Notes: generated from the sequence alone by a model not told the origin. Counted from the first letter of the stretch, positions 3,060-30,625 are shown. The stretch is 64,000 nt of DNA from Candidatus Iainarchaeum sp. (GCA_018304425.1 JAGVWE010000005.1:128001-192000); one strand, 5' to 3'. Numbers and translations are program-made.

Positions 3060-3280
3060 GTGGGTAGCGGGTGGATGGCTGCGTCCCGAGCCCGAAAGGG
3101 CGAGGGATGAGGAAAGTCCGCCCACCTATCGAAACCAGCGCCAGAAATGGTGCCCGGGGGAACAGAAACGAGACCTGGCCGAAAGGCTGGGATGAAACGC
3201 GCTCCCGGTTGGGTGCAACCCGAAAGGGGCTCAGGCGAATGCCATCTAAAACAGAAGGCGGCTTACGGCCCGCTGCCCAC
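3060..3280 (+). ncRNA. rnpB: RNase P RNA, compact (about 221 nt), type-M-like
   Basis: GAGGAAAGTCC (CR-I), ACAGAAA (CR-II), TGAAAC (CR-III), AACAGAAGGCGGCTTA (CR-V); terminal helix GTGGGTAGCGGG/CCCGCTGCCCAC; T-tract downstream. Confidence 0.95.
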
Positions 3281-26423: not shown

Positions 26424-27077
26424 TCAGGGCTTCAAGGCCTTGAGTTGTTCTACCGCTTCCGCTGGGTTGGCGGACGCGAAGACGGTGGTTCCGGCCACCA
26501 AGACGTTGGCTCCTGCCTTGAGGCAGCGCAAGCCGGTTTCCAGGTCTATTCCGCCGTCGACCTCGACGTCGCAGGCAATCTTTTTCTCTTTGAGGTAGCG
26601 CGCGAGTTGCTGGATTTTGTAGACCGCGTTCACGTTAAAGGCTTGGCCGCCAAAACCTGCTTCGACGGTCATGACTTGTGCCAGGTCGACGTCGGCGAGA
26701 AAGGGGAACAGTTTTTCTATGTCCACCCGGGCGTTGGCCGAAATGCCTTTGACCAGGTCGTTGACTTGCATGAGTTTGATGGTTTGCAGGGGGTTGGCAA
26801 CCGTTTCAACGTGGAAAATGGCCCCATTCGCCCCGGCCTCGGCAAAGGGCTTGATGAACCGGTCCGGGTTTGAAACCATCAAGTGGACTTCAATGGGGAG
26901 GTCGGTCACTTTCCGGAGGGCCTTGACGACGGGAACGCCCATGGAGAGGTTCGGCACGTAGTGGCCGTCCATCACGTCCACGTGGATGAAGTCCGCGTTC
27001 TTCACCTTGCCGATTTCCTCGGCCAGGTGCGCGAAGTCCGCGTTCAAGATGCTGGGACCGACTTTGACCATGACCAT
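26424..27077 (-). CDS. rpe: Ribulose-phosphate 3-epimerase
   Basis: PSILNAD, HVDVMDGHYVPN, HLMV, GFGGQ, VDGG; start at 27077 or 27071. Confidence 0.95.
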   Translation of the reverse strand: MVMVKVGPSILNADFAHLAEEIGKVKNADFIHVDVMDGHYVPNLSMGVPVVKALRKVTDLPIEVHLMVSNPDRFIKPFAEAGANGAIFHVETVANPLQTIKLMQVNDLVKGISANARVDIEKLFPFLADVDLAQVMTVEAGFGGQAFNVNAVYKIQQLARYLKEKKIACDVEVDGGIDLETGLRCLKAGANVLVAGTTVFASANPAEAVEQLKALKP

Positions 27078-27093
27078 TACCTGCAGCAAAGCC

Positions 27094-27166
27094 TATTTAT
27101 GTCCCATCGAGCCCTTCAGGCGAGATGGGACGACGTATCGTGTGCAGCCGCCACCTTCAGGCGGCT
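27094..27166 (+). repeat. Family B element, variant copy abutting the 3' end of tRNA-Ala in opposite orientation
   Basis: TATTTAT-GTCCCATC-[15-nt loop]-GATGGGAC-GACGTATCGTGTG-C-AGCCGCC-ACCTTCA-GGCGGCT. Confidence 0.85.
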
Positions 27167-27167
27167 A

Positions 27168-27239
27168 TGGACTGGCGGGGAATCGAACCCCGAGTCTCCG
27201 CGTTGCGAACGCGGCGTCTTACCATTCGACTACCAGCCC
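27168..27239 (-). tRNA. tRNA-Ala(CGC)
   Basis: GGGCTGG/CCAGTCC acceptor stem with G3:U70; CCGCG-TT-CGC-AA-CGCGG anticodon arm. Confidence 0.96.
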
Positions 27240-27240
27240 A

Positions 27241-27315
27241 AGGGCTTTTTACAAAAGCCCTGCGAAAAGGTGCCATTCTCACGAATGGCACGGCCTTTTT
27301 ACAAAGGGTTTGCGA
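27241..27315 (+). repeat. Family A element, about 1.5 copies, abutting the 5' end of tRNA-Ala in opposite orientation
   Basis: AGGGCTTTTTACAAAAGCCCT-GCGAAAAG-GTGCCATTC-TCAC-GAATGGCAC-GGCCTTTTTACAAAGGGTTT-GCGA. Confidence 0.9.
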
Positions 27316-27432
27316 CCTTGTCTCCCCCTGGGAGACGAGGCCCCGAAGACAAAGTCTTCGGGGAAATGCCCTGTGCATTGCACAGGGCTGGCTCGGCCTT
27401 TCGGCCTCGCATCTGGGCAGCCGTTGCCCAGA
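27316..27432. repeat. Run of five closely spaced, unrelated short palindromes
   Basis: CCTTGTCTCCC-CCT-GGGAGACGAGG; CCCCGAAGAC-AAA-GTCTTCGGGG; GCCCTGTGC-ATT-GCACAGGGC; GGCC-TTTC-GGCC; TCTGGGCAG-CCG-TTGCCCAGA. Confidence 0.88.
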
Positions 27433-27487
27433 CTGCAAGATAACTGAAACCAAAGGAATTTATTAAGGGTTAACATTAATATAAAGC

Positions 27488-30400
27488 ATGCCGGATGGAG
27501 AGGGGAAGGACGCGGTAGCCGCTGGTTCGGGGGAGAAGCCCAGGCCCTTGGGGGCAGGGGAGCGGGTGGTGAAGCTCAAGGCCGCGCCGAAGACCGACCT
27601 CTTTGAAGAGGTCTTGACCGGGAAAAGCCATGAAGAGCAGTCCCTGGACGAGCTCTCGGAGGCCGAGGAAAAGAGGGCCCAGGAAGCCGAGAAAACCGTG
27701 GCCACCAAGCCGGGCAGCGGGGCTGCGCCGGTGGCGGGGGCGGAAATGCCGGCGCCTGTTCAGGCTCGCCGCGGGAGCCCTCGGAAGGCTGCCCCTAAAA
27801 TCAGGGTACGCAAGAAGGGGGTTGAAGAAGCCGGGGCCGGCGTTGCGTCGAGTGAGGGCGGGGACGACGATGACGAGGAAGACGAGCCAGGGGAACCGAA
27901 GCCGCCCCTGGACATCGAGGAAGGCGATGACTTAAGTGCCGGCGACTGGAATGACTTGTTCAAGGAGGGAGACACCCGGGAGGAAGGCATCAAGGCGGCG
28001 CAGGCCCTGCCGGAGGCAGGGGCCGGGGAAGCGGGGTCTTCGGCGGGCGAAGAAGGACCGGTGGAGGCAAAAACCCCGCAGCCCAGCAAGGAGGAAATCC
28101 GCAGGGAGTTGATTGCCAGGACCGTTGCGGCCGGCCAAGGGGATTTGACTCCCTTGAAGGAGGGGTTGCCGCTCAAGTTCTTGGAGGACCCGGAGAAGGG
28201 CAACGTGTTCATTGGCCGCAAGAAAAACATTTGGAAGAAGTACGGGTATGAGGGCGCGTTGCTGGTTGGAAAGGTAGTGGAAGAAGAGTTCAAGGAACGG
28301 CACGTCTACTTGGACTCGTTGAACCCGCACGTGGTGTTCGTTTGCGGGGCCCGGGGTTCGGGTAAATCGTATATCATGGGGGTCATGGCCGAGGAACTCG
28401 CGCGCAAGAACAAGAACGTGGGAACGGTGGTCATTGACCCGGTTGGCGTGTTTTGGAGCATGAAGTACCCGAATAAGGAGGAAAAGGAGCTCGCGTTGAT
28501 GCCGGACTGGGGCTTGCAGCCGGAGGGCCTGGACAGCTTGCGCGTGTTCATCCCAGAGGGCATCAAGAGCCAGACGCCTAAGGAGACCTATGACGCTACC
28601 TTCACCATGCAGCCCAGCCTCTTGACTTCGGATGACTGGTGCCTGACCTACGGCATTGACCGGTTCAGCCCCACGGGCCTCTTACTGGAAAAGACGCTGA
28701 AGAAAGTCGAGTTGGGGTATGAGAACCTGGATGGCAAGAAGTTCCCAGCCCGCAGGCGGTCTTATTCCCTGGATGACCTCATTGCCTGCCTGGAAACGGA
28801 TGCGGAATTGAATTCGAGGGACAAGGGGTACAAGCAGGACTCCATTCGTGCCCTGGTTTCCCGATTTGAGGCCGCCAAGAACTGGGGGATTTTCAGTGAT
28901 AGGGGCACGCCCTTGGTGGAAATCAGCAAGGAAGGCCAGTTAACGGTCATTGACACGAGTTTCCTGGACGACAATGTCACGGCCCTGGTCATCGGGATAC
29001 TGGCGAGGAGGCTGTTGGCGGCCAGGAAGCTGTCCACGCGGAAGGAGGCCGCCAAGAAGTTCCAGGAAGAGGAGGGGGTTGACGTCCTGGAAACGGATAT
29101 TCCGCCTACCTGGCTGTTCATCGACGAGGCGCACACCCTTATCCCGAGTGGCAACGTCAAGACCCCGGCCACGCATGCCCTGGTCGAGTACGTGAAGCAG
29201 GGGCGTCGACCGGGTTGTTCCCTGGTGTTTGCCACGCAGCAGCCTTCGGCCATTGACACCAAGGTGTTGAGCCAATTGGATGTGATGGTCACCCACAAGC
29301 TGGTGTTCGACGACGACATCAAGGCCATTTACAAGCGCAGCCCGACCATCGTGCCCTTTAAGTACAAGAAGCCGAGTTTCGTGAAGACCCTGCCGATTGG
29401 CACGGCGCTGGTGGGGGATCGGACGGAGGAAACGAGCCGCGCCTTCATCATGAAAATCAGGCCCCGGTTGTCCCAGCACGAGGGCCGTGAGGCGGAGACC
29501 ACGGAGCGTTCCGTGGAGTTGGGGGCCAAGCAGGTGGAGCAGTTGGCGGTGAGCATGTTGTTGCGCCGCCTGGAAGAAGAGGGCGAGACCAGCATCGAGA
29601 CCGTGGAGAAGAGCGTGCAGGTGCTTAACCAGAAGTACAAGAGCACAGCCGACGCGGAGAACGTGCTCGCGATGCTGAAGCGGCATGGACTTGTAGTGGA
29701 CGAGGAGTTCGTGCGGTTGAAGGAGTACGTGGAGAAGGAAGAGGGAACCGGGAAACCGGCGGCAGCCAAAGCCGGCGAGGAAAGCCCCGTGGAAGCGGAA
29801 GAAGAAAAGGAGGCCGAGGAAGAGGCCCAGGAAACGGCGGGGGAGGAAAAACAGGGGAAACCCGTCCCCGAAGCCGTGGAAGCGGGCTTCGGCGGGCAGA
29901 CCGAGTTGCTGGCCTTGCCTGCCCGCGTGAACCAGCAGGCGGCGCAGCGCGTGGTGGATGGCCTGCGGCACAGGAAAGTCCTGGGCTTGCTGGGCAGCGA
30001 GGAAGTCATCGAGGACCTGCAATTGAAGTATGTCACGATTTGGCGCGTCAAATACGATGTCTACAACCAGCGCAAGGAATTCATTGCCCGGGAATGCTTC
30101 GTTAATTCCATGAGCGGGGAATTCATCCACTTCTTGAAGGACCGGTTCGTGGAAAGCAAGGGCTTGAAGGAAGTGTACGAGTTGGGCGAGGACGAAATCC
30201 AGTTCGTGCGCCTGCTGGGCCGCAAGGAGATGTCCTTACAGGAAATCGTGAAGCACACGCTGTTGGACGAGAAAAAAGTCCGCCCCGTCCTCGACAAGCT
30301 GCACTTCAAACGGTTGCTGGGCAAGACCAAGAAGAACAACGAACTCCATTACTGGCTGTTGAAGGAGTTTGACTTGCCGCCCCATGAAAGGCACGACCTC

Positions 30401-30625
30401 CTGCAGTCCATCCGGAACCTGCCGTTCGTGCGCGCGGAGGCCCTGGCCAAGGAACGCGAAATCTACGGCCGGAAGGAAATCCCCGAGGTCCTGGGCAAGC
30501 TATGGAAAAACATTCTGGTGCACAAAATCGAGGAACTCCACTGGCCCATCTGGCAGGCCACGTTGAAGGAAGGCCAGCGCACCCGCAAGGTCGGCATCGA
30601 CGCAGTTACCGGGAAAGCGGTTTAG
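27488..30625 (+). CDS. HerA/FtsK-superfamily (DUF87-like) ATPase with long N- and C-terminal extensions
   Basis: HVVFVCGARGSGKS Walker A, IDPVG, LFIDEAH Walker B, QGRRPG, ATQQP. Confidence 0.88.
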   Translation: MPDGEGKDAVAAGSGEKPRPLGAGERVVKLKAAPKTDLFEEVLTGKSHEEQSLDELSEAEEKRAQEAEKTVATKPGSGAAPVAGAEMPAPVQARRGSPRKAAPKIRVRKKGVEEAGAGVASSEGGDDDDEEDEPGEPKPPLDIEEGDDLSAGDWNDLFKEGDTREEGIKAAQALPEAGAGEAGSSAGEEGPVEAKTPQPSKEEIRRELIARTVAAGQGDLTPLKEGLPLKFLEDPEKGNVFIGRKKNIWKKYGYEGALLVGKVVEEEFKERHVYLDSLNPHVVFVCGARGSGKSYIMGVMAEELARKNKNVGTVVIDPVGVFWSMKYPNKEEKELALMPDWGLQPEGLDSLRVFIPEGIKSQTPKETYDATFTMQPSLLTSDDWCLTYGIDRFSPTGLLLEKTLKKVELGYENLDGKKFPARRRSYSLDDLIACLETDAELNSRDKGYKQDSIRALVSRFEAAKNWGIFSDRGTPLVEISKEGQLTVIDTSFLDDNVTALVIGILARRLLAARKLSTRKEAAKKFQEEEGVDVLETDIPPTWLFIDEAHTLIPSGNVKTPATHALVEYVKQGRRPGCSLVFATQQPSAIDTKVLSQLDVMVTHKLVFDDDIKAIYKRSPTIVPFKYKKPSFVKTLPIGTALVGDRTEETSRAFIMKIRPRLSQHEGREAETTERSVELGAKQVEQLAVSMLLRRLEEEGETSIETVEKSVQVLNQKYKSTADAENVLAMLKRHGLVVDEEFVRLKEYVEKEEGTGKPAAAKAGEESPVEAEEEKEAEEEAQETAGEEKQGKPVPEAVEAGFGGQTELLALPARVNQQAAQRVVDGLRHRKVLGLLGSEEVIEDLQLKYVTIWRVKYDVYNQRKEFIARECFVNSMSGEFIHFLKDRFVESKGLKEVYELGEDEIQFVRLLGRKEMSLQEIVKHTLLDEKKVRPVLDKLHFKRLLGKTKKNNELHYWLLKEFDLPPHERHDLLQSIRNLPFVRAEALAKEREIYGRKEIPEVLGKLWKNILVHKIEELHWPIWQATLKEGQRTRKVGIDAVTGKAV

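Follow-up and report, generated by a model that had tools for sequence, protein, structure and literature searches.

Hairpin modules around an archaeal tRNA-Ala gene are copies of two dispersed palindromic repeat families

The hairpin-rich segment at positions 27094-27432 of the 64,000-nucleotide stretch of Candidatus Iainarchaeum sp. DNA analysed here (the window) most probably consists of copies of two dispersed and probably mobile palindromic families, A and B, that reside in the discarded parts (leaders, trailers and introns) of stable-RNA units. Both families are recurrent, modular and covarying, occupy non-coding DNA only and, in the stable-RNA units of this genome, are restricted to the discarded parts. 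The tRNA-Ala gene enclosed by these modules, which the initial annotation had described as inverted relative to its flanks, shows the standard configuration of the genome and not an inversion, because A and B each keep one fixed end toward the tRNA on either side of it. The locus is thus ordinary for this genome, and its interest lies in the two families from which it is built.

Results

Layout and hairpin content of the tRNA-Ala locus

The host genome (1.48 Mb in seven contigs, 59% GC; G000 in our genome set) is archaeal, and Rfam identified in it an RNase P RNA and an LSU rRNA of archaeal type. The locus starts on the left with the rpe gene for ribulose-phosphate 3-epimerase (26424-27071, minus strand; Pfam PF00834, E = 4.2e-61), which probably begins at an ATG at 27071 or 27077. 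Next comes a B copy of the B2 type, in which 23 nt separate the end of the TATA box TATTTATG (27094-27101), on the minus strand, from the rpe ATG at 27071. The TATA box is followed by an imperfect hairpin at 27101-27131 (supported by the inverted-repeat search, the predicted fold and the B alignment), a conserved spacer starting with GACGTAT at 27132-27145 (from the comparison of B copies) and a second hairpin with a 7-bp stem at 27146-27166, which adjoins the tRNA-Ala 3' end. The tRNA-Ala(CGC) gene itself (27168-27239, minus strand; Rfam tRNA, 69.9 bits; 27167-27240 according to ARAGORN) is intact, with G3:U70 present and no encoded CCA. Its 5' end adjoins the perfect 21-nt palindrome (27241-27261) of A copy 1 (27241-27291, plus strand; 72.9 bits with the covariance model), which continues with the linker GCGAAAAG and a hairpin at 27270-27291. 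A copy 2 (27293-27411, plus strand), a member of the A2 subfamily, begins with a degenerate palindrome (27293-27311), followed by a linker that a two-hairpin insert (27317-27363) interrupts, a hairpin (27368-27388) and a GA/GNRA hairpin box (27389-27411), which combines a GAAA-type loop with tandem G/A mismatches. The outermost hairpin, detected by the inverted-repeat search (27412-27432, 8-bp stem), has no family assigned. Beyond it are an AT-rich promoter region in which the sequence and a TATA-hexamer scan reveal two TATA-like boxes (27459-27466 and 27475-27485), and a herA-like ATPase gene (27488-30625, plus strand, ATG at 27488; Pfam PF01935, E = 1.3e-15, and PF05872). The order and strands given in the initial annotation, with tRNA-Ala on the minus strand, B on its left and A on its right, are therefore correct. 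An Rfam scan of the whole window returned tRNAs and RNase P only, and no family for the hairpin modules. The RNase P RNA match, at 3063-3277 on the plus strand, spans 215 nt for a model of 288 positions (107 bits) and may correspond to a shortened RNase P RNA.

The pile-up of hairpins at tRNA-Ala is real. The predicted fold of the minus-strand RNA has about ten local hairpins around the tRNA, which is the number given in the initial annotation, and the energy of the 27090-27436 segment is -186.3 kcal/mol versus -131.9 +/- 6.8 in 100 shuffles (z = -8.0), none of which was as stable. To the right of the tRNA, five perfect hairpins (stem of at least 8 bp, loop of 3-8 nt) are found inside 192 nt, in addition to imperfect ones. 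Genome-wide, there are 279 perfect hairpins, with a density of 0.83 per kb in non-coding versus 0.12 per kb in coding DNA, and contig C4 harbours 54 versus 17-26 in three Markov simulations. The tRNA-Ala locus is among the four densest hairpin sites of the genome, and the other three, at tRNA-Pro(TGG), tRNA-Gly(TCC) and the 3' flank of 23S, are all at stable-RNA genes as well.

Family A

The A unit is composed of a 21-nt palindrome, a GCGAAAA linker and a covarying hairpin. A profile built from 20 seed copies and searched against the whole genome (nhmmer, E <= 1e-3) identified 25 copies, whose positions were compared with a set of 48 tRNA genes (57 ARAGORN predictions minus six with introns above 150 nt and three with coding-looking flanks). 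As many as 21/25 are in or within 75 nt of a tRNA or 23S gene, while about 1.3 would be expected by chance from the fraction of the non-coding DNA that is so placed (binomial P about 3e-23), and the remaining four come after the stop codons of three protein genes. The palindrome end is turned toward the stable-RNA gene at 14/14 abutting loci. At eight of these, A is upstream and on the opposite strand, with a gap of 0-4 nt to the mature 5' end (Val(GAC), Val(TAC), Gly(GCC), His, Ser(GCT), Ala(CGC), Val(CAC) and Pro(TGG)), and at six it is downstream and on the same strand, separated from the 3' end by 1-3 nt at tRNAs (Arg(CCT), Gly(TCC), Lys(CTT), Gly(CCC) and Gln(CTG)) and by 23 nt at the 23S gene. 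An additional, weaker copy is found downstream of tRNA-Arg(CCG). Moreover, full A units constitute the introns that ARAGORN calls in tRNA-Gly(TCC), tRNA-Asp(GTC) and tRNA-Ser(GGA), and palindrome variants are found at the start of the tRNA-Leu(CAA) and tRNA-Pro(TGG) introns, in each case on the tRNA strand. One sequence is thus present in the introns of several tRNAs at position 37/38, as in an intron family, but A as a whole is not a tRNA-intron family because the flank copies have no exon partner. Away from tRNAs, Rfam matched only the end of the 23S gene at the four A loci searched. The A copy at the 23S gene belongs to an rRNA operon (C4:124344-127725) containing tRNA-Ala(TGC) and a B2 copy in the spacer before 23S, with A beginning 23 nt past the 23S end.

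There is one exception to the polarity of A, after tRNA-Leu(CAG), where the hairpin end points to the tRNA. In this arrangement (C3:228829-229004), the reversed A is followed by a degenerate repeat of the last 20-21 nt of the tRNA, which the palindrome adjoins, and then by a T-rich terminator. It resembles a scar left by integration or duplication, or else an alternative 3' exon.

The stems of A covary strongly, with 99.3% of cells paired, 11/18 pairs changed on both sides and 0/500 shuffles reaching the observed score. G.U wobbles are found three times on the forward and once on the reverse strand, an asymmetry that does not discriminate between the two strands. Support for a triple helix, in which the linker would fold back on the palindrome, is mixed. 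The A4-G ... G-A4 mirror is present in 13/15 aligned copies, being imperfect in the Asp intron and the Gly(TCC) 3' copy, and the single three-way co-change, of a stem pair with the mirrored linker base, is in the tRNA-Asp intron copy. However, alignment columns 19 and 24 covary as complementary bases, unlike in a triple helix, and in relatives the run lengths of stem arm and linker show a rho of 0.13 (n = 81, not significant), that of T-run and linker being 0.36.

Composite modules

The palindromes to the right of A copy 1, which had been taken for five adjacent and unrelated elements, turned out to be mostly something else, since 27293-27411 is a second A copy and the composite that it forms recurs at three other loci. 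A with a two-hairpin insert at the same insertion point is found at four loci including tRNA-Ala, the others being C3:220877, C5:170512 and C7:53785; two of these three are upstream of tRNA-Val(CAC) and of tRNA-Pro(TGG), and the third is C3:220877. A second type of composite, in which a 48-nt two-hairpin insert is located inside the A palindrome, also occurs at four loci, and the same 48-nt insert is found in the first hairpin of one B copy. Because each composite type recurs at four loci, composites were copied whole. The proposal of a hotspot where hairpin modules are added one after another therefore stands only in part: it agrees with the tandem arrangement of two A units, of which one has a two-hairpin insert nested in it, and with the nested and tandem modules at other tRNA loci.

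Family B

The B module is a 60-75-nt repeat with a TATA box at one end and two hairpins, and the 14 copies in the genome that have the TATA motif can be divided, by their second hairpin, into four B1 and ten B2. B1 is in 4/4 cases directly 5' of a sense tRNA and after the end of a co-directional gene, and its TATA is the only TATA box available to the tRNAs concerned, Ser(TGA), Leu(CAG), Leu(GAG) and Ser(CGA). Half of the B2 copies are instead on the 3' side of a tRNA, with the hairpin end inward and the TATA outward: Ala(TGC) in the rRNA operon, Ala(CGC), Leu(TAG), Gln(TTG) and Gly(TCC), where B2 stands behind an A copy. At three of these five, an outward ATG is located 16-25 nt from the TATA, the distance being 23 nt for rpe. 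Three further B2 copies come after a stop codon and before another TATA box. The archaeal TATA box is centred about 26 nt before the transcription start, and the 23-nt TATA-to-ATG spacing at rpe would fit a leaderless mRNA.

Orientation and integrity of the locus

The idea that the tRNA is inverted came from the rule that elsewhere B is 5' and A is 3' of a tRNA in the sense orientation. This rule is true only for a few examples in the window, where B is 5' of two sense tRNAs and A is 3' of one, and genome-wide the opposite layout is equally common, with A upstream on the opposite strand at eight tRNAs and B downstream with its TATA outward at five (tRNA-Ala(CGC) is counted in both). Equivalent layouts are also seen in relatives. 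Nor is the orientation of A and B near tRNAs random, which had been offered as the outcome that would undo the initial interpretation; genome-wide it is fixed, as illustrated by the 14 abutting A loci. Furthermore, the borders of tRNA-Ala have no inverted repeat and no strand-changing joint is listed for the contigs of four sequencing runs; a site-specific invertible segment would have inverted repeats at its borders and be present in both orientations in the population. A search of metagenome contigs with the rpe protein, for rpe-tRNA-Ala-herA synteny, produced 80 loci, all with at most 49% identity.

The locus is not an assembly artefact either, as had been considered possible, because contigs of three public runs cross it without differences. 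Among 13 public DNA runs containing the stretch or part of it, the contigs of four (X1, X5, X6 and X7) were compared. X1, which may be the source of the window DNA, covers 26500-27358, X6 covers 27140-27366 and X7 covers 26955-27268, each with 0 differences, and these runs of three studies jointly span rpe, B, the tRNA and A, crossing the B-tRNA-A junctions. The combined evidence makes it extremely improbable that the tRNA segment is an invertible cassette or that its arrangement is an assembly error. Contig breaks occur at 27337-27358, within a repeated hairpin, and A/B repeats do break short-read contigs. In X5, one contig skips 27270-27367 (98 nt; depth 5.5, shorter side 30 nt) and one replaces 27240-27441 (202 nt) by 24 nt (depth 7.1, shorter side 27 nt). 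These skips are weak hints of length variants only; the 24-nt replacement would, if genuine, set tRNA-Ala about 40 nt from the box at 27459, as in an empty site.

Promoter positions

As noted in the initial annotation, tRNA-Ala lacks a clear TATA box about 30 nt upstream, unlike Arg(TCT), Gly(CCC) and Ser(GGA), which have one 26-33 nt upstream. There is no TATA-like hexamer within about 220 nt upstream of tRNA-Ala, and the nearest TATA-like boxes are about 220-245 nt away. In ordinary tRNAs of this genome, the TATA ends 26-34 nt before the mature 5' end, which is the case for 0/8 tRNAs with an A leader. In all eight, the nearest TATA-like box is beyond the array, and in five (Val(GAC), Val(TAC), Gly(GCC), Ala(CGC) and Pro(TGG)) its end is 23-33 nt away from the array's first module. 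The box at 27459-27466 ends 26 nt before the outer hairpin on the minus strand and, in the plus-strand direction, is 21 nt from the ATG of herA. The 27459-27485 region is therefore likely to be the promoter of the herA-like gene, and its position suggests that it could also be that of the minus-strand tRNA-Ala precursor. Its two TATA-like boxes face each other around GTTAAC and may form a bidirectional or overlapping promoter pair. From these promoter positions, we favour a reading in which the A array would be a hairpin-rich 5' leader removed by RNase P, with arrays having presumably entered between promoter and tRNA and moved the promoter away.

Three other roles were considered and rejected. 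The A palindrome is not suited to be the TATA of the tRNA itself, because its AT core is at -16 to -6 relative to the mature end and a start about 25 nt further on would be inside the tRNA. The T-run of the linker is no better candidate, as inserts shift it to about -77 at tRNA-Val(TAC) and tRNA-Gly(GCC). A processing stem between leader and trailer can be dismissed at tRNA-Ala, where the upstream A flank and the downstream B flank are not complementary.

Family A in relatives

A covariance model of A (57 positions, 18 pairs; E <= 0.001) detected A-like modules in 64 of 121 genomes of the order, the host being counted, with up to 37 matches per genome. The model was needed to detect the family, since the exact palindrome is found in 30 relatives at 0-3 copies per genome versus 0-3 for a reversed control. 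The palindrome stem and a GCGAAAA-type linker are conserved across loci of 30-55% GC. This sequence conservation exceeds the need of a purely selfish hairpin and hints at a function or a binding factor. A tRNA is present within 120 nt of, or around, the match at 13 of the 29 best-per-genome loci and likewise at 8/20 of the next matches, 2/20 of which did not match the motif pattern. For modules at most 5 nt from a tRNA end in relatives, five are at the 5' end on the opposite strand, three are at the 3' end on the same strand and one is contrary (L134), while 6/6 intron copies are on the tRNA strand. In G065, tRNA-Pro(CGG) is flanked on either side by A, each palindrome pointing inward (L162). 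Some positions are shared between genomes, such as the tRNA-Gly(TCC) intron (G000, G031 and G064) and the tRNA-Val(GAC) 5' flank (G000 and G012). The tRNA linkage is not universal and varies by lineage, because only 1/9 A-like modules is near one of the 16 tRNAs in the first 400 kb of G016, a complete 1.24-Mb genome.

Two loci in relatives are unusual. At L157 (G065:C1:105562-106010), ARAGORN predicts an intron-bearing tRNA with anticodon TTA ('tRNA-Stop'), with A in the intron and in the 3' flank, which may reflect a misplaced intron. At L132 (G013:C1, around 149563), the A palindrome adjoins a tRNA-like T-arm and 3' end on the opposite strand, uncalled by ARAGORN; this may represent either a fragment or a tRNA interrupted by a non-canonical intron.

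Discussion

The interpretation that we propose for these observations is that A and B would be selfish or semi-selfish repeats that survive at sites from which RNase P, the enzyme of 3' processing and the splicing endonuclease discard them, and that they might spread by the copying of whole composites, via transposition or gene conversion. At the locus studied here, minus-strand transcription of tRNA-Ala would be directed by the boxes at 27459-27485, a leader of about 195-215 nt made up of both A units and the outer hairpin would be cut off by RNase P, and B2 would fill the tRNA-rpe spacer with a TATA that may drive a leaderless rpe mRNA. Tolerance alone does not account for the palindrome end always facing the tRNA. 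A tentative and, in our estimation, unlikely possibility is that A is a novel type of element, a structured palindrome-linker-hairpin module conserved across a DPANN order, which targets tRNA ends and inserts 3' of the acceptor-stem end on either strand and after position 37. If true, a single mobile family would account for tRNA introns as well as leaders and trailers, and cells might have recruited its fold or a factor bound to it. Speculatively, recognition of a helix end could give such a mirror rule, in which the strand of forward A always has the acceptor-stem 3' strand before the palindrome. This is so in both flank layouts, since tRNA positions 66-72 are the reverse complement of positions 1-7.

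The most serious competing explanation is that A is not selfish DNA but a functional cis-element of stable-RNA genes, i.e., a protein-binding site, a triple-helix-type fold-back, or a processing or insulating signal. The conserved core sequence in 64/121 genomes, the strict polarity toward the tRNA, the joint change of a stem pair and of the linker base mirroring it in the tRNA-Asp intron, and the fact that the same tRNAs carry A across families (Gly(TCC) intron and Val(GAC) 5' flank) are all consistent with this, but about 17/48 tRNAs carry A and most do without, and its copy number and position vary widely among relatives, one of which (G016) is almost without tRNA linkage. The complementary covariation of columns 19 and 24 and the uncorrelated lengths of the A-runs in arm and linker count against a triple helix specifically. 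Overall, we regard a cis-element as unlikely. A more restricted functional proposal, that A is a bidirectional terminator or insulator and B a promoter cassette, which together would shield highly expressed stable-RNA genes, draws on the forward A copies right after same-strand 3' ends at nine loci (five tRNAs, 23S and three protein-coding genes, with Arg(CCG) as a weaker tenth) and on a palindrome with a T5 run on one strand and two T4 runs on the other. However, A occurs in the same orientation, with T5-T6 runs, within the introns of tRNAs present in single copy and also, only 9-14 nt ahead of tRNA-Phe, in the spacer that separates it from tRNA-Lys, all of which must be read through, while at 5/8 upstream loci the neighbour is divergent and there is nothing to terminate. 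A pure terminator role is unlikely because the same orientation occurs in introns and between co-transcribed tRNAs, and the shielding proposal as a whole has, we believe, little chance of being correct.

A last alternative concerns the direction of transcription at tRNA-Ala, where the B2 TATA at 27094 might fire rightward, antisense to the tRNA, and transcription stop at the T5 run of A, producing an antisense or tRNA-like RNA. B2 is laid out like B1, the sole promoter available to four sense tRNAs, 5/10 B2 copies point into a tRNA 3' end, and the three G.U pairs of the A palindrome are on the forward strand, two of them in copies upstream of tRNAs. On the other hand, one such B2 is in the rRNA operon spacer, where antisense firing makes little sense, the spacing of outward ATGs at three B2 copies suits the opposite direction, and a hairpin pair in the tRNA-Ser(GCT) leader copy wobbles on the reverse strand. 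Such a plus-strand unit, predicted from sequence features, is in our view very unlikely, and we retain the reading in which the array is part of a minus-strand leader.

The closest parallel for the intron copies is the 'large-scale tRNA intron transposition' described by Fujishima et al. (2010), in which, as reported in PMC4090602, related introns are found in different Thermoproteales tRNA genes. Like these introns, A is one short family present in the introns of tRNAs of different identity within a genome, which implies copying at the DNA level. Unlike what the same text describes for them, A also adjoins mature 5' and 3' ends, follows 23S and three protein genes, forms tandem arrays and has a fixed tRNA-ward polarity, in a lineage that is DPANN. 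Intron gain has been linked to an integrating element in PMC3293823, and the route by which archaeal tRNA introns arrive is stated as unknown in PMC4090602 and in a preprint on Asgard tRNA introns (bioRxiv 10.64898/2026.10.13.758758). In the literature covered, we found no published DPANN repeat common to tRNA introns, leaders and trailers; intron families that matter here may be listed in the supplements of Fujishima et al. and of the preprint on Asgard archaea. By occupying introns, leaders, trailers and the 23S 3' flank with strict polarity, A offers a concrete test object for the question of intron origin. In addition, the A/B repeats account for tRNA genes seemingly without a promoter and for long hairpin-rich spacers in the annotation.

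Several known systems resemble parts of this picture. Fungal mitochondrial DNA contains GC-rich palindromic clusters beside tRNA genes, and these are similarly mobile-looking, nested palindromes gathered near tRNA genes in a compact genome, although A/B come from another domain of life and are unrelated in sequence. To our knowledge, fungal mitochondrial GC clusters are not known as introns spliced by protein enzymes. B has features of the TATA promoters of archaeal stable RNAs, since the B1 TATA is upstream of a tRNA and the B2 TATA is 16-25 nt before a start codon in the style of leaderless mRNAs, but unlike in these promoters the TATA is embedded in a two-hairpin repeat that is used in both directions relative to the adjacent tRNA. 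REP/BIME are bacterial extragenic palindromes mobilised by RAYT (Y1) transposases. Like them, A and B are short GC-rich palindromes with covarying stems, found only in non-coding DNA in tens of copies that form clusters and mosaics. Unlike them, A/B are strongly tied to tRNA ends and introns and flank no RAYT-like gene. The sole Y1 gene of the genome (C1:18-482) and the TnpB genes are flanked by unrelated hairpins, and the Y1_Tnp, TnpB and integrase genes found by a genome-wide search have no A/B modules at their borders, one B2 copy being about 670 nt past a TnpB gene with two genes between. The terminal inverted repeats of MITEs are absent from both families, the two ends of A being a palindrome and an unlike hairpin, and those of B a TATA and a hairpin. 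There is also no target-site duplication: removing the 48-nt insert restores the A palindrome with no bases duplicated, and none is seen at the nested insert. The IS200-type Y1 transposase at the start of a contig is accompanied by a weak integrase-like match (C1:18-1524), near tRNA-Thr(CGT), with hairpins unlike A/B. Of the two Pro(TGG) genes, one has a 42-nt exact copy of the tRNA-Pro(TGG) 3' part (C7:55456-55497) about 3.2 kb downstream, and tRNA-Tyr has a 20-nt exact copy of its 3' end (C3:187685-187704) about 2.9 kb away; these 3' copies could be att-like repeats of integrated elements.
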